Source: Vicugna vicugna (lineage: Eukaryota). From it: a stretch of 42,873 nt of DNA. A program made the translations under genes and the position numbers. This document shows positions 560 to 38,785 of this stretch, piece by piece. How positions within the stretch are numbered: position 1 is the first letter of the stretch; each line of letters opens with the position of its first letter. The notes beneath the pieces were generated by a model that worked only from the letters and a program-made list of their open reading frames with translations, ran no database searches and had not been told where the DNA came from. The stretch covers positions 4,714,001-4,756,873 of the forward strand of contig MU058221.1 in NCBI GenBank assembly GCA_013265495.1, in the 5' to 3' direction.

Positions 560-651
560 CCGCCCCCCGGCCGTCGGGCCCGCCCCCTTTGCGGCGGGCG
601 AGGGGCGGGGCGGGGTGCGGCGTATATAAGACGAGGGGCGGGCGCCACTCT
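560..651 (+). promoter_or_regulatory. TMSB10: TMSB10 core promoter: GC boxes, TATA box, initiator-like element
   Basis: Tandem GGGGCGGGGC Sp1/KLF boxes (602-615), TATATAA at 623-629, CCACTCT (YYANWYY) at 645-651 followed by a pyrimidine tract. Confidence 0.85.
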
Positions 652-716
652 TTTGTCTCTTGCTGCAGCGGAGCGAGCGGGAGCATCCGGACCTCGGCTC
701 GGAGCGGAACTCCTCG
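650..716 (+). other. TMSB10: TMSB10 exon 1 (non-coding 5' UTR)
   Basis: Starts ~25-30 nt after the TATA box; ends at donor CTCG|GTGAGC (intron from 717); resembles the recalled mammalian TMSB10 5' UTR. Exact TSS uncertain. Confidence 0.75.
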
Positions 717-1000
717 GTGAGCGGCGCGCTGGGGCGGGGGCCCCATCAGGGTGGGGTCGGAGCGGGTTTCCCCAGCGGGCGCGGCGCGGCGCGGCTGCAT
801 CCGGGCGCGCTTCCCCGACGGGGCGCCCGGGCCGGCCACACCCTGGGGCTGCGGAGGGGGTGCGGGACGCGCACAGATCCTCGACCTCGCGGCTGCCGGG
901 AACGCCCTGATCGGAATGCCACGTCGAGAGGCGGCGGCGGGGAGCGTGGAGGGGGCCGCTGGCCCTGGCCCTGGGCCAACCGCCTTGGTTTGCCCGCTAG

Positions 1001-1177
<177 letters not shown>

Positions 1178-1392
1178 TAACCCAGCCCCCCACTCCCATC
1201 CGGCCGGTGCCTCCCATCGAGCGGCCCCAGTCCCCCTTTCTGTTACACAAAGCGCTGTTTCTCCACAGCCCCAAACCCCTTTCTGAATCCCCAGACCGCG
1301 TGGGTGCCTCGCCCACACCAGGTTTTAAGCGCCTCGGTGGGGGGGTTGCAAGGGGTCCCCATCCCCCAGTGCCCGCTTCCTGCTCTCTACAG

Positions 1393-1421
1393 CCATTGAG
1401 CAGGAGAAGCAAGCGAAGTGA
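1393..1421 (+). CDS. TMSB10: Thymosin beta-10 (beta-9 type), coding part of exon 3: (T)IEQEKQAK*; full product 42 aa including Met
   Basis: Acceptor ctctctacAG|CC at 1392/1393 completes ACC (Thr); ATT GAG CAG GAG AAG CAA GCG AAG TGA (stop 1419-1421). Confidence 0.95.
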
Positions 1422-1655
1422 AATTTCCTAAGCACCTGGAGGATTCTCCACCCCCATCATCCTGGAGACCCTAGTCGTGATGTGGGTGAAGAGCCACCTG
1501 CAAGATGGACACGAGCGACAAGCTGCACTGTGAACCCGGGCGCTCCGTGCCGGCGCCACCGGCCCGCGGGTCTCTGAGGGGACCCTCCAATCGGACTGCC
1601 AAATTCTCCGGTTTGCCCTGGGATATTATAGAAAATTATTTGTATGATTAATGAA

Positions 1656-7874: not shown

Positions 7875-7991
7875 GCTGCAGGGACAGGAAATCAGGGCAG
7901 ATACAAAAGACTTTGCACAGGAAGAATTAGTAAGACTTCAGATCATGTGAGCAGTTACAGAAGTTGTAATCTGACAAACTGAAACAAACTT

Positions 7992-8395
7992 ATTTTTTAA
8001 CATAGTTCAGAGAATATTTATTGACCCGGAGAGATGTTCTTTTTTTTGTTTCCTTATTGTGAAGATTTCTTATTTTTATTGAATTATAGTGGGTTTACAG
8101 TGTTGTGGTAATTTCTGGTGTACAGCATAGTGATTCAGTAATACATATTTCATATTCTTTTTCATTCCAGGCCATTACAAAGTATTGAATACAGTTCCCT
8201 GTGCTATACAGTAGGACCTTGTTGTTTATCCAGTTTCGTGGAGATTTTTCTTGTAGCTCCAATTGTACAAGATTTTCTGCCAAAGTTCCGTAGGTATTAT
8301 GTGAGAGCTGGTCCACGTGCAGATGTGTTTTTGATGTATTCTGAGGAGAGGATGAGCTCCACACCCTTCTCTTTACCATCTTGAAGCCCCTCTTA
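7992..8395 (-). mobile_element. Mini-L1: L1 5' end fused to L1 3' UTR plus 3'-transduced tail, flanked by 11-bp TSD
   Basis: TSD GAAACAAACTT at 7981-7991 and 8396-8406; 8230-8395 reads (minus) GGGGCTTCAAGATGG...GTGGAGCTCATC..., an L1 5' terminus with YY1-type motif; 8071-8229 is L1 3' UTR; 7992-8070 is extra sequence with its own AATAAA. Confidence 0.8.
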
Positions 8396-9559
8396 GAAAC
8401 AAACTTTTGCTTACTTCTGTGGTTTCATTTCTGCGCTTCAAGAGTGGAAGACCAAAGCGCCCAGTAACCAGGACATTTCCCAGAAAATGCATTGGGAGAC
8501 ACAGTACTGCTTTGGGGAAAGATTTTACAGTCCCCAAATAAGTATCATACATTAATTGCATGGCCAAACTATTGTACAGATACAGAATAAAACAAGGCCT
8601 TGAGAAAGTGGGTGCCTCTGGCACTGAGCCCTGGGAAGGGCCAGGTGAACTTGTAAGACATCACAGCATCCTAGGACCTTCATCAGGCAGAACCCTGGAA
8701 GTTGACGTCAGTGGGAGTCTGGCTGGAAGCACATGGTGGGGAAAAAGCAGGCCAGGTGGCCAGGATCAACAGGCTAGTTAGGGCAGCCAAAGTGGAGATG
8801 CTATAGTTTGTTAATCCGTTGCTTTCTCCGTCTGTTCAATCACAATTTATTAAGCTCCCGTGAAGTACTGGGTCCTAGGCTACGTGCGCTCAGGATAAAC
8901 ACAACGGGTGCTCCTGGACGTCATTCTCTTACAGGTAAGATGAACAGGTAACCTAGATTAATGACAAAATATGGGATCACGGAATTCTGTATTCTGATTT
9001 GAAACTAAAAGGGCATTAATATTTTTTACCTCCCCAGTGAAATTCGAAAGACTGAGCCCTTAACACTGAGACACAGGCCTGTTGGCTCAACCCCGGAGTT
9101 TTTCAGCATTTACTCTGAATTTCTATAGCACTCATTTCTATCTCTGTAATGTTAAATCGATGTTCGCTAGAAATCAGCAAGATTAGGAGGGTTAGAAGAT
9201 ACAAGTCGTTGGCCCCATGAATGCAGGTTATCAAGCACCTCAATCATAGCAGAGGCTTTGTTCCACATTATGGAGAAATCCTGTTCTCTGCAAAAGCCAT
9301 TCTGCCCAGGAAACTTCTCACTCTTGTATCATTGCAGCTCCCAAGACCTTCATCTGAGGCATCTGTGGCTAAAAAGAACCTATTCTTTGACTCAACCTTT
9401 TTTGTCCAAATATTATCTCCTGCAAGGCTGTCCCTCATTTTGTTTCCTGCTACTCAGATGCCAGGTTATTTGAGATGGCTTGTTGTTAGGGGAAAAAAAA
9501 TCAGTACAGTGTATAATCATATCACGGGGGTTCTTTCGGTTTTGCTTAAAAAAAAAAAA

Positions 9560-16515: not shown

Positions 16516-16640
16516 TCTTTTTTTGGCAGGGGGTAGATAATTAGGTTTATTTATTTGGTTTTTCAGTGGAGGTACTGGGGACTGAATCCAGGACCTTGTG
16601 CATGCTAAGCACACGCTCTACCACTGAGCTAGACCCTTTC
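16516..16640 (-). mobile_element. tRNA-Ala-derived SINE (camelid Vic-1-like)
   Basis: Minus strand TAGCTCAGTGGTAGAGCG (A box) ... GTCCTGGATTCAGTCCCCAGTACCTCC (B box) ... AATAAATAAACCTAATTA tail. Confidence 0.88.
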
Positions 16641-26476: not shown

Positions 26477-27400
26477 TGTGTATCTTTGGGTTTTGATACG
26501 TAATACATTTGGGTTTTGTCCCTTGGAATCTCCAGGGAAATGAGAGCGTCTTTTGTATGTTAATGAAATGACTGGCAGATGGGGACCCTTAGACAGACCT
26601 AGATGGGATGGATGCTGGTCACCTGAAAGACCAAGAAATAATTAGGGACTTGTAACTTTCAGTCTTAACCCCCGACATCTGGGAAGGGAAAAGGGGCTGG
26701 AGATTACCAACAGCCAATGATTTAATCATCCAGGCCTCTGTAATAAAACCACCATGAAAATCCTTAAATGATGCAGCTCAAAGACCTTCTGGGTTGGTAG
26801 ACATGTTGAGGTGTCAGGAGGTGGCACACCCAGAGGGCACAGCCATACCACCTCTCCCCAACACCTTGCTTGCCCTACGCATCTCTTCTGTTTTTTGTCT
26901 TAAAAAAAATGGGGGGAGGTAGTAATTCAGTTTAATTTTTAATTTTTTTTCAATAGAGGTACCGGGGATTGAACCCAGGACCTCGTGCACGCTAAGCACG
27001 CCCCCTACCACTGAGCTATGCCCTTCCCGCATCTCTTCTGTCTGGCTCTCCTTGAGTTGTGTGCTTTATAATACACTGGTGAATGTGAGTAAAGTATTTC
27101 CCTGAGTTCTGTGAGCCATTCTAGCAAATTACTGGCCCTGTAGAGGGGGTTGCAGAAGCCCCCCACTGACAGCTGGTGGGTCAGCCGTGCAGGTGGGAAC
27201 CTGGGACTTGCTTCTGGCGTGTGAAGTAGAGGCAGTCTTGTGGGGCTGAGCCCTTAACCTGCGGAGTCTGACACTAACGCCGGGAGATATTGCCAGAATC
27301 GAATAGAATTGTTGGACACCCCTCTGGGGTCTGGAGAGTTGGAGAACTGGCTGGTGTGAGGGAAAAGCCCTCACGCTGGTTGTCAGAGTACTGTAAGTAA
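26477..27400 (+). mobile_element. MER21-like LTR, interrupted by a SINE
   Basis: Colinear recalled MER21 blocks 'cttttgtatgttaatgaaatgactgg', 'gccaatgatttaatca', 'cctgagttctgtgagccattctagcaaatta', 'gcagtcttgtggggctgagcccttaacctg'. Strand is relative to the recalled consensus. Confidence 0.85.
26892..27027 (-). mobile_element. tRNA-Ala-derived SINE (Vic-1-like) with 14-bp TSD
   Basis: Perfect TSD CGCATCTCTTCTGT at 26878-26891 and 27028-27041; A and B boxes on the minus strand. Confidence 0.93.
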
Positions 27401-27699: not shown

Positions 27700-27856
27700 A
27701 GGAAGGTACGGCTCAAGCGATAGAGGGCGTGCTTAGCATGCAGAAGGCCGGTTCAATCCCTGGTACCTCTTCTAAAAAAAAAAAAAAAACAAACCTATTA
27801 TCTCTCCACAAAATTTTTAAAAATTAAATTAAAAAGAGCAAAATAAATAAATAAAA
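27700..27856 (+). mobile_element. tRNA-Ala-derived SINE (Vic-1-like), long-tail variant
   Basis: 'ggaaggtacggctcaagcgatagagggcgtgcttagcatgcagaaggccggttcaatccctggtacctc' plus A-rich tail. Confidence 0.85.
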
Positions 27857-28595
27857 GTTTAAAGGCTGAAGGAGAGCTGGCCATGCCAAGAAGGGAGAAG
27901 GGAACATAAGCAGAGCGGGCAGCTTGGAGAACAACCCAGAGGTAAGGGCAGCATGGACAAGAGATCGTTAACTGCTCTCGCCACCCATTCTCCTCCGCCA
28001 GAAAGTCTCTCTAAAGCTCAAATTTGACTTCCTGGCTGTAACCCTCCACTAGTTCCCCTTCCTGATCTGTGGCCTCTCAGCCTCACCTCTCAGCTTCTTA
28101 GGGTGCCCCTGGCAGTATTTCCCGTCTCTGGACCGTCATCTCTGCTCCTCCGTCTGCCTGGAATGTCCCGCCTACCTTGCTTGATGTGGCGAACTCCTAT
28201 TCACACTTCAGAGTGACTCAGCTGTGACTCAGACGTGACTTGTTGCACAAGGATCCCCTCTCACCGGCACTCACCTCTGTGGCGCACGTATTCCAGGGCC
28301 GGGAACTCCACTTGCTTGCAAGTCTCCCTCCTGCTCCGGCTGTGAGGGGCACGGGCACCAGGACTGGCCTGCAATGGTTCTCCAGCAAGGCTCTGACTTC
28401 TCAGCTGACCTACCTCCTCTTTCTCCGTGAATCTGTGTCGACTCCCACTTAGAACCATGTGATGCTGTGGCTTAGAGGCACTGGGTAACAGTGACTGTGA
28501 TTATGAGATTGTCCTACTTTATGGAACATACAAATTTATGTACATTATGACTAAGACTAGTAAAACGCGTTTGTATTTAAAAAAATCACAATGAA

Positions 28596-28698
28596 GGGTA
28601 GAGTATGCGCTTAGCATGCATGAGGGTCTGGGTTCAATCCCCAGTAACTCCATTAAAAATAAATAAGACTAATTACCTCCCTCCCCACCCAAAAAAAA
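28596..28698 (+). mobile_element. 5'-truncated tRNA-Ala-derived SINE (Vic-1-like)
   Basis: 'ggtagagtatgcgcttagcatgcatgagggtctgggttcaatccccagtaactccatt...aattacctccc'. Confidence 0.85.
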
Positions 28699-29226: not shown

Positions 29227-30382
29227 CACTGCATGGCTGTCCGAGCTCTATTTAATTAGCCCCTTATTAAACACATTTACATTGTTTCCATGTGTTCGCC
29301 ATTACAAACAATTCCACCATCGACACTTTTTTTCCTCCAGCGTTAACACCAGTTGATTAACTACCACTGTGGGGATCCAGGAGTGAGAACACGACCCAGT
29401 GTGAACCCAGTGTGTCCACACAGAAAGATTTCCTTTCAAGAGGAGTCATCACTGGAGTCCAGTGGCTCATGGAGGGAATTCTGGGATGATGAGCAATTGC
29501 CAAAAGTCACTGAGATCTTGTTTTCATGAAAACAGGACACTCATTCACCAAAAAACATCAGAGCACCCTCCAGGGTCCAGGATTAGGTGAAAATTCAGGG
29601 ATGTAAGACAATGAAAAATAGACACTAGCAACCAATGGCTTGTTCTCCATGGTGGTGGGACATAAAGGAGCCCAAAAAGGGAGAAAAGAAAAGGAAAGGA
29701 AATTACTGATTACCCACCTTGTGTGCCAAGCATGTGAGCTGGATGCTGTATATACAGGCATGGTCTTCCAAGTGTTAGCTGACCATTATCGCCTGTGCAT
29801 CAGCCAGTCAGAACAGACGCAGGCCTTAAATAACTGGTATCACTGAACCGGTGCGAATCGCTGAATATTGTGCTGCCCACATTTAAGCCTTGATTTAATC
29901 CCACTGTGATACACCACAGCATCTCATGGTTATGAGTGGGAGTCTACACAGATTCATGGAGAAAGAGGAGGCAGGTCAGCTGAGAAGTCAGAGCCTTGGC
30001 TGGGAAGGAGGGCTGTGTCTTTTACCCCACTGTAAAGCACCCGACAGCCGAGAAGAATGGCCCTGGGGGAAAACTTGAACCTGCACAGCATTTATCCTCC
30101 TTCAAGGAAGCCTTGGGAATGATCCCCTCCGCTCCAATTGCCAAAAGCAACCAAAGAAGCAATTACTGTGCACAGTCTCAGCCTGTACTGGGGAACGTGG
30201 ATAGTGCGTGGAGAGTCGAAGTTATCCATTGTTACAGATATTTCCCCAAAGAACATCTACTAATGGTCAATAATGTATGAAAAGATGCTCAGCATCATTA
30301 GCAATTAGAGAACAGATCAAAGCCACAGTGAGGTAGAGCTTCACTCCCCCTAGGACGGCTCTAGTAAAAGGTGTACAGTGAT

Positions 30383-30471
30383 GGGGTGGGGGGCACAGCT
30401 CAGTGGTGCAGCGCTGCTTAGCATGCACCAGGTCCTGGGTTCAAGCCCCAGCCTCTCCATTAAAAAAAAAA
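30383..30471 (+). mobile_element. tRNA-Ala-derived SINE, short form
   Basis: 'cagctcagtggtgcagcgctgcttagcatgcaccaggtcctgggttcaagcccca' + poly(A); degenerate TSD aaaaggtgtacagtgat / aaaagatggacaacgat. Confidence 0.85.
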
Positions 30472-30815: not shown

Positions 30816-31103
30816 GGGTGGGAAGGGATAAATTGGGAGTTTGAGATTTGCAGACACTAACTACTACATATAAAATAGATAAACAACAAGGTCCTACTGT
30901 ACAGCACAGGTGACTATATTCAATATCTTGTAATAAGCTATAATGAAGAAGAATATGAAAGAGAATATATGCAATATCTTGGAGTAACCTAGAATTAAAA
31001 AGAATATATGTATGTATGTGTATGAGTGAAATATTACGCTGTACACTAGACACTGACACAACATTGCAAACTGACTAGACTGCAATTAGTAAATTAAAAA
31101 AAA
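30816..31103 (+). mobile_element. 5'-truncated L1 3' UTR with perfect 16-bp TSD and an internal ~40-bp duplication
   Basis: TSD AAAAAGAAATGAATGC at 30800-30815 and 31104-31119; 'caatatcttg...agaatat' occurs twice. Confidence 0.92.
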
Positions 31104-34823: not shown

Positions 34824-34825
34824 TT

Positions 34826-34899
34826 GCAGGTACTGGGGACTGAACCCAGGGCCTCGTGCATGTTAAGCACGTGCTCCATCACTGAGCTATTCCCACCCC
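34826..34899 (-). mobile_element. tRNA-Ala-derived SINE (Vic-1-like)
   Basis: 'ggtactggggactgaacccagggcctcgtgcatgttaagcacgtgctccatcactgagcta'. Confidence 0.88.
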
Positions 34900-35107
34900 T
34901 CTCCTCTGAGGATCAGGCCCCCCGGGCTCTTTTTGGACAAGTCATTCACTTCACAAATCAGCACCCAGAGCCCTCTGCAGCAGCCAGGTGCACAGCGGTC
35001 TCCGAGCCTGTAAGTGGAGGACACTCCCTCCCAAGGGCTGCCCTCTGGGAGAGGAAGACGTTTAACTGCGGTCGTGGAGAACTGTAAAGTGAATCGGGAG
35101 CACTTCA

Positions 35108-37439: not shown

Positions 37440-38600
37440 AGTGGAACAAAGGACAACCGAAGGGAGTATGATTGGTGGTGAGGGGACAAAATTCACTGTG
37501 AGTCTCGAGGAGGGAGGGTAGCAACCTGGGATGGTTTGGTTGCCATGGGAATGGAGTGAAAGGGGCGAACCTGACCAACGTTTAATGGATAAAATCCACT
37601 GGTGACTGACTGGCCACGGGAAATAAATGGGAGCGAAGTCTAGATGACTGTTGGGTTTCATGTTGGGTAACTGACTGGGTCGATGGTGACTCTGCTCAAA
37701 CCAGCAGAGGATACAGGAAGAGCACAGGGATGGGAGGGAAGATGAGAGTGGTGTCACTGAAGATGAGTGGCCCACAGCATCAAAAGCCAAGCAATCAGAT
37801 GAATCAGGTTACAAAGCTGAGGAAGAGGAGTGAGTTACTTTAAGAATTTTGACTATGAAGAGGAGAAAAAACCAGAGGACTTTAACCAGAGGGAGGGTAG
37901 GATTGGAGTGTTTCTCAGCCAAGGGAAACAAACCAGCAGAGGCTGAGGAGACGTCAAAGAGGTGGTGAAGGGCAGGATCCAAGACGGGATGAAGTGGGAT
38001 AAGCAGAGGTGGGACTGAACTGGAAAAAGGACATCTCGGCTCTGCTGGGGTGGGAGCGAGGGCACAGGACAGCAGGACGCACACGTACAGACTCCTCTGG
38101 AGGTTCACGGTGGGAAGGGGAAGACGTTTTTGCTGCTTGAACTTTACTCCCTCCATGTACTGGGTGAGGTTATCTGTTGAGGACGTGGTTGGGAAGCAGT
38201 TGAGGCCAGGTGGTGAAGGGCTATAATAATCTGAGAAAGGCAGAGCATGCTGATAGGACAAGAACTGCTCAGTGGGGCTAAGGCCCAACTGCAGGTGCAT
38301 CCACTAGGTTTTATAATAGCTCTTCCCTCACCACCCCGGAATCTGCGTATTTCCACCATTTCTTTACATTGTGTTCTGTACCTCAAGCAGACATATGTGG
38401 GAGGGGGGTGAATTGTGATGCAATTTACTCAGGATTGGGAGTTTGCAGAGGTACAGCTTGAGAATGAGGGGTCTAAAGAGGTGAAGGTCATGAATGAGAA
38501 TAGTTTTAGTTGACCCAAAGGGTACCCATTGGATCAGGAAGAGAATTCAGTCCAAAAAAAAGGTCAAGTGGAAAGATCACGGGGCGGAGGTTCTGAAGTA
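37440..38600 (-). mobile_element. Decayed L2 ORF2 region
   Basis: Minus-strand remnant LAFDAVGH (~37765-37790) matches the L2/CR1 RT motif AFDTVDH; purine-rich plus strand typical of antisense L2. Confidence 0.6.
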
Positions 38601-38616
38601 AAAGAGTAGATTTAAG

Positions 38617-38785
38617 AGGGGAGGGTATAGCTCAGTGGTCGAGTGCCTGCCTAGCATTCAAAAAGTCCTGGGTGCAATCCTTAGTAGCTCCATTAAAACT
38701 AAATAAATAAAAACCTATTTACCTCCTCAAAAGTAATATAAAAGTAAATAAATAAAAAAGTAATAAGTAAATAAAATTTTAAAAT
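38617..38785 (+). mobile_element. tRNA-Ala-derived SINE (Vic-1-like), long-tail variant
   Basis: GGGGAGGGTATAGCTCAGTGGTCGAG...GTCCTGGGTGCAATCC; flanks aagagtagatttaa / aagagagatttaa. Confidence 0.9.

Follow-up and report, generated by a model that had tools for sequence, protein, structure and literature searches.

A short L1 derivative in Vicugna vicugna that joins the two ends of L1, probably through RNA splicing

The closest described counterparts of the element analysed here are the human SpIREs. Like it, they keep the L1 5' end, have lost an internal segment at GT..AG, and are bounded by a target-site duplication (TSD), with an A tail; independent loci share one junction, the donor lies near the 5' end and the acceptor beside a putative branch point (PMC5860796, available in part). 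The classes described in that portion of the text are intra-5'UTR or 5'UTR/ORF1, and one SpIRE is presented as revived by a host promoter (bioRxiv 10.1101/2025.02.02.635956, partial text). Splicing is also documented in L1 mRNAs: in tissues, SpORF2 and other spliced forms use donors in the 5'UTR and acceptors a long way downstream (97 to 1837; 290 to 1920), and those of the SpORF2 type keep ORF2 (PMC2896524, partial text).

A second group of relatives consists of non-autonomous families. Bov-A, RIME, NARTc and the Vingi derivatives contain only the 5' and 3' ends of a parent LINE and need the proteins of the parent. In the accessible part of the survey by Kojima in 2018, such ORF-less bipartite LINEs belong only to the RTE, Ingi, Vingi and R2 clades and arise by internal deletion, and the letters "splic" do not occur; HAL1 is also a non-autonomous derivative of L1, but one which keeps ORF1 (PMC5786205). 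SINEs transcribed by Pol III possess a head derived from tRNA, 7SL or 5S RNA.

The window, i.e. the whole stretch of 42,873 nucleotides that was analysed, holds a 426-base insert (7981..8406, minus strand) which is most likely one of several dispersed L1 copies whose coding interior was cut from the RNA like an intron. It would thus work as a SpIRE does; with respect to the classes in the accessible text of PMC5860796 it fits neither, because its acceptor lies in the 3'UTR, neither ORF is left, the product measures about 0.32 kb and the host is not a primate, and it would represent a further class, old and multi-copy. Unlike SpORF2-type mRNAs it lacks ORF2, unlike HAL1 it has neither ORF, and unlike Pol III SINEs its head is the L1 5'UTR; the Bov-A-like families propagate themselves, which these copies do only putatively. 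A search of the literature (papers only, with Repbase and Dfam outside it) returned no paper on an L1 spliced from 5'UTR to 3'UTR or on such a camelid family, and in the portions available of two camelid repeat surveys the words "spliced" (PMC8605555) and "non-autonomous" (PMC6675863) occur 0 times.

If splicing is the origin, spliced L1 retrocopies extend beyond primates to the limit case in which the whole coding interior is removed, so that every copy must have been mobilised in trans. They would document, as fossils, a route by which host splicing deprives L1 RNA of both ORFs, and would offer a testable link between this route and a single change in the 3'UTR, the gain of a branch point.

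Structure and recurrence of the element

Both ends of the window, which is mammalian DNA, have a CpG island, the second beginning at about 42,200. The CpG-island gene at ~600-1450 (plus strand) has an exon near 1017 which, from its translation, we take to be thymosin beta-10, and the element lies about 6.5 kb downstream of this gene on the opposite strand. Its parts, all on the minus strand and listed in the 5' to 3' direction of the element, are the following:

8396..8406, minus: 5' copy of the TSD, 11 bp, which may extend by two A's to 8408
8391..8395, minus: five extra bases, TAAGA, separating the TSD from the start of L1
8230..8390, minus: start of the L1 5'UTR, 161 nt, recognised through homologous ORFs; putative exon 1 of the spliced RNA
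8376..8383, minus: CAAGATGG motif, located within the 11-mer 8376-8386
8095..8379, minus: open frame of 94 codons over the junction
8229..8230, minus: 5'UTR/3'UTR junction, putative GT..AG splice scar
8075..8229, minus: L1 3' end, about 155 nt, closing in AATAAA (8080-8075); putative exon 2
7992..8074, minus: degenerate A tail, then about 75 nt of non-L1 sequence, a probable 3' transduction
7981..7991, minus: 3' copy of the TSD

The original prediction of a direct joint at 8230/8229, between an L1 5' end and the L1 3' UTR and inside a single TSD, is confirmed, with a 5' part of 161 nt. The TSD 11-mer has exactly two occurrences in the window (7981-7991 and 8396-8406) against 0.08 expected, a count reached in none of 100 shuffles. 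The TSD and the A runs are hallmarks of target-primed reverse transcription, and the target site on the cut strand, 5'-TTTT/G, is a variant of the EN-type site. Both arms derive from L1: the 3' arm, which begins with ATAAACAACAAGG from 8229, aligns with the L1 ends of the window, and the 5' arm with L1 homologues. The motif CAAGATGG is presumably the YY1-type motif of L1 promoters, and its ATG opens the frame that spans the junction.

This frame opens at the first AUG and stays open until some 15 nt ahead of the poly(A) signal. The junction makes it from two frames, either of which is frequently open among family members; the join could be due to chance, which preserves the frame one time in three. 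The frame has no Pfam match, its exact sequence is absent from the protein collection searched, and it consists of UTR sequence, so the idea of a gene, for which no support was found, was dropped. It served instead as a query to pick out ORFs that had been called spuriously in the host DNA of public assemblies. No ORF crosses the junction among the matches listed (265; 120 of 214 and 150 of 418) or among the 71 homologues of the 5' part; as the search sees only open frames, this is weak evidence that the junction form is not abundant in the hosts of those ORFs.

The junction was then followed in sequencing runs. Of the words that make up the locus, 94-97% are present in fourteen DNA-type runs from organisms A and B, and up to 36% in RNA-type runs (organism C or host-derived metagenomes). 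Recurrence was surveyed in 4 of 24 runs (X5, X10, X15 and X16) at 80% likeness, with 32 of 66,475 pieces listed. The junction was found to be crossed by these contigs from other loci:

8174-8293, X5 and X10: 85% identity, no gap
8182-8356, X5 and X10: 80% identity, no gap, followed by more than 1 kb of unlike sequence
8193-8391, X5 and X10: 82-83% identity, three gaps
8148-8316, X15: may be the orthologue of one of the X5/X10 contigs

At least three other contigs, 80-85% identical to the present copy, cross the junction in both X5 and X10, as would be expected if, in line with the prediction, the joint exists elsewhere in the genome. They cover 37-56 nt of the 3' arm and 64-162 nt of the 5' arm at about single-copy depth. 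A fourth further locus is implied by the distance-to-piece-end value at 8238 in X5 and X10; the reading of these end distances explains six of the seven positions in the two runs, and the seventh is the one that implies the additional piece. The number of loci is a floor, since at 80% an old copy matches its closest relatives only, and these loci are known from contigs.

The insertion itself is old. In X5 and X10 the orthologous contig shows no difference from the present copy; in X15 and X16 it differs by 3.3-3.6%, keeping the junction, the 5' TSD and 22-23 nt of the 3' arm. In these RNA-type runs it measures 1.4 and 3.0 kb and covers 8207-8600 of the window; its presence there could come from transcription running on past the upstream gene or equally from carried-over DNA, and contigs cannot show transcription. 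At 15 of 152 sites the present copy departs from the majority letter among seven window copies. This is several times what each lineage has accumulated since the two separated, so the copy is much older than that separation. DNA scans for relatives among viral contigs, JGI metagenomes, GTDB, plasmids and phages gave nothing usable; a viral-contig match (L001) proved to be chance, and a GTDB match in a bacterial MAG (L002) was taken as such.

Donor and acceptor sides of the junction

Among the phmmer matches listed, four ORFs correspond to the 5' half. A profile built from them gave 69 matches, or 71 homologues with the inclusion of two seeds that were not returned. One homologue, P0309, continues from the sequence of the 5' arm into L1 ORF2p residues 245-287 (E 1.5e-5). 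Moreover, a contig of run X16 (record 23) aligns with 8230-8360 and then presents 337 unlike letters past 8230; stopping exactly at 8230, it behaves as an unspliced 5'UTR should. These homologues support the assignment of the 5' part to the L1 5' end, as had been proposed. The window contains no other homologue of this part, a word-based protein search with the 5' part alone gave no candidate, and Rfam returned for the 5' head only a sub-threshold mir-9235 match (24 bits against a cut-off of 95, E 0.017), which lies at 8323-8390 on the plus strand, antisense to the L1 5' end, and is probably due to chance.

P0309 and P0288, which probably stem from a single locus sampled in two species, carry this L1 5' end in frame with ORF2p (residues 245-287), joined just downstream of the endonuclease domain. 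The fusion point is apparently a few bases upstream of the present donor, and the two ORFs represent a second kind of internally deleted L1.

Of the 71 homologues, 32 end short of the junction, 9 are frame-shifted, 2 are misaligned and 28 are in register. In the latter, which are unspliced, the residue after the donor is Val (GTN) in 19, Ile (AT) in 6 and another in 3, and the next residue is usually Gly; the dinucleotide is deduced here from protein codons, mostly of other hosts, and not from camelid donor-side DNA, and Ile is enriched because three of the six Ile rows are seeds retrieved with a query that itself carries Ile. GT is thus the usual dinucleotide after the donor position, as the prediction had anticipated. 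Five shifted-frame ORFs terminate at VPG, as expected from a stop codon at intron position +2 (GG|G TAG), and both reading frames combined spell GTAGG after the donor. The codon before the junction is Trp in 17, Gln in 6 and Arg in 3 of the unspliced homologues, which is the pattern of a decayed CGG. The ancestral donor was probably CGG|GTAGG, to judge from these codons, and the parent of the present copy may have carried the GT; at the level of the family the deletion starts at a GT donor.

The acceptor side can be read directly in the window, where eight other copies align with the L1 3' arm. The four L1 copies previously said to have TAG before ATAAACAAC all have it (22683, 24549, 30879 and 37108), and two further degenerate copies (33222 and 4677) likewise end in TAG, for a total of six out of six. 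The biggest loose end in all four runs sits behind 8230 and reads TAG|ATAAAC (1129, 1122, 261 and 331 contigs), supporting this as the dominant 3' form of the genome.

The absence of a polypyrimidine tract before the acceptor, noted in the original prediction, was confirmed; as an objection to splicing it is offset by a branch-point heptamer, C/TACT(A/C/G)AC, whose A lies at -19 in four of the six window copies (CACTAAC, CACTCAC, CACTAAC and TACTGAC), with no AG between it and the acceptor. Among the 6156 AGs of the window, 8 have such a heptamer by the strict pattern, which was defined post hoc, and 148 by a loose one. In the accessible parts of the literature, the yeast branch-point consensus is UACUAAC and the human one yUnAy, with 83% at a distance of 21-34 (PMC2367711), and a distance of 18-37 is given together with selection of the first AG (PMC8531310). 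The value of -19 is at the near edge of these distances, which counts against splicing.

Whether the parent of the present copy belonged to the branch-point group can be judged from its relatives. The majority loose-end consensus lacks the T of the branch point. The window copy nearest to the present element is a carrier of the heptamer (33222, 20 of 27 informative sites), and the second nearest is a non-carrier (37108, 16 of 27). Of seven diagnostic sites, two agree with the branch-point group, four with the other group and one with neither, and a tree of the eight 3' ends has support for none of its five branches. On sequence similarity, the parent likely had the branch point. The four carriers are relatives, so that they count as one event and not four. 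At its 3' limit the deletion meets an AG acceptor accompanied by a branch point, whose use in splicing we infer.

Splicing and the alternative readings

The most probable explanation is that an L1 RNA was spliced from 5'UTR to 3'UTR, lost both ORFs and was mobilised in trans, and that this recurred from full-length sources. A full-length L1 would be transcribed from its own 5' promoter, and the transcript would read past the weak L1 polyadenylation signal into about 75 nt of flank. The spliceosome would join a donor GG|GT located ~160 nt into the 5'UTR to the acceptor TAG|ATAAAC, which lies ~155 nt before the L1 poly(A) signal and would be set by the branch point at -19, not by a pyrimidine tract; this single splice would strip both ORFs. 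After polyadenylation at the AATAAA of the flank, the short RNA would be inserted by target-primed reverse transcription. Having no ORFs, this RNA would depend on the ORF1p/ORF2p of another L1, and the copies left dispersed by recurrent splicing would mostly be dead ends. In that case they form a tidy new class of SpIREs, mainly for retrotransposon specialists.

The structure of the DNA, the TSD, the recurrence, the presence in a second lineage, and the TAG and branch-point motif in unspliced 3' ends are the directly observed parts of this account; in its favour, a random cut would give GT..AG in only about 0.4-0.8% of cases. Six of the nine positions around the junction match between the two parents, which counts against it, and the cis preference of L1 is a hurdle for any RNA lacking ORFs.

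The tail agrees with a read-through transcript. The L1 3' end stops at AATAAA (8080-8075) and is followed by ~75 nt of non-L1 sequence, overlooked in the original prediction, with an A run at 8047-8040, a second AATAAA at 8022-8017 and a final A run at 7998-7993; we interpret it as probably a 3' transduction from the source locus. It has no homologue inside the window. None of the four runs has any depth at 8016-8042, and as the orthologous left flank is likewise missing this proves nothing about the source of the tail. The TAAGA of 8395-8391 recurs at 8072-8068, right after the first AATAAA; this is suggestive only of a remnant of the TSD of the source locus, a mutated A tail explaining it equally well.

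A one-off deletion is excluded by the recurrence, which is however compatible with repeated splicing, with a spliced master and with a template-switch product alike. Spliced copies that keep the promoter and re-mobilise from master copies would constitute a SINE-like family driven by Pol II, i.e. a splice-born, ORF-less and bipartite non-autonomous family of the L1 clade propagating from a truncated promoter, and we consider this unlikely but not negligible. Such a family could have originated when an L1 subfamily gained the branch point in its 3'UTR, and its open frame might bring the RNA onto ribosomes, close to nascent ORF2p. The junction is common to several loci: at least four of the listed pieces, the orthologue included, cross it out of about 42-47 contig-equivalents over 8237-8241, a ratio that is biased but above the ~2% of human SpIREs, and 161 nt of 5'UTR with the YY1-type start are kept here against 97 nt in human SpIREs (PMC5860796, available in part). 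The transduced tail could also mean that the source read through its 3' end; the tail and the nested 5-mer, however, suit a full-length source equally well. The other copies differ from the present one by 15-20%, and human SpIREs lose promoter activity and are dead ends (same source, partial text). A self-amplifying family of this kind would fill the L1-clade gap in the 2018 survey of ORF-less bipartite derivatives and would be a SINE-like parasite made without a Pol III head. Of the overall interpretation originally offered, the L1 5' end, the GT, the TAG and the recurrence are supported, whereas the self-amplifying SINE-like family lies outside that support.

A switch of template, by reverse transcriptase or in DNA repair, at a short imperfect similarity, with amplification of the product or recurrence of the jump, appears doubtful. 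The original prediction had allowed for a microhomology of 1 nt; a similarity does exist and is stronger than that, for besides the agreement of the parents at six of nine positions, the AT-type 5' variant (6 of 28) gives an exact overlap of 4 nt. A different 5'UTR/ORF2 fusion away from the donor also exists (P0309). INNK is natively preceded by a Trp codon in other cetartiodactyl subfamilies (TGG; 186 of 260 ORFs matching the 3' half, among the matches listed), and a TGG-type parent would have no AG, so that the junction would be an overlap of TGG on both sides; this tally is biased, however, because TAG is a stop codon and TAG-type ORFs are never called. In fact, the present copy has none of the Trp-type residues P17, N20, H21 and G23, and in X5 its letter at 8231 is shared by a depth amounting to 0.26% of that on the neighbouring 3' side. 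An A at 8231 (element strand) is read in one other X5/X10 copy and one X15 copy, as could suit a template switch; it also agrees with an ancestral CpG that has decayed, and A is apparently the letter of the X16 orthologue as well. Template switching also leaves the branch-point motif unexplained, unlike splicing.

That a full-length L1 inserted and later underwent a single genomic deletion, or that two unrelated fragments happen to adjoin, is very improbable and largely refuted: the same junction lies at three or more other loci with unlike flanks, it is present in the orthologue of a lineage 3.3-3.6% diverged (X15/X16), and a single TSD encloses both parts.

Other repeats of the window

One of the L1 3' ends (30879-31087, plus strand) has an internal duplication of ~40 nt, and its upstream part switches abruptly to sequence resembling a region further 5' in L1. 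The window also contains seven copies of a tRNA-like SINE of ~110 nt, presumably of the camelid Vic-1 type:

16518-16638: tRNA-like SINE
26915-27040: tRNA-like SINE
27711-27803: tRNA-like SINE
28597-28697: tRNA-like SINE
30363-30470: tRNA-like SINE
34825-34908: tRNA-like SINE
38597-38728: tRNA-like SINE

Finally, 28382-28470 and 29914-30003 form an inverted pair of 90 bp with 92% identity, about 1.45 kb apart, which are possibly the ends of a DNA transposon.
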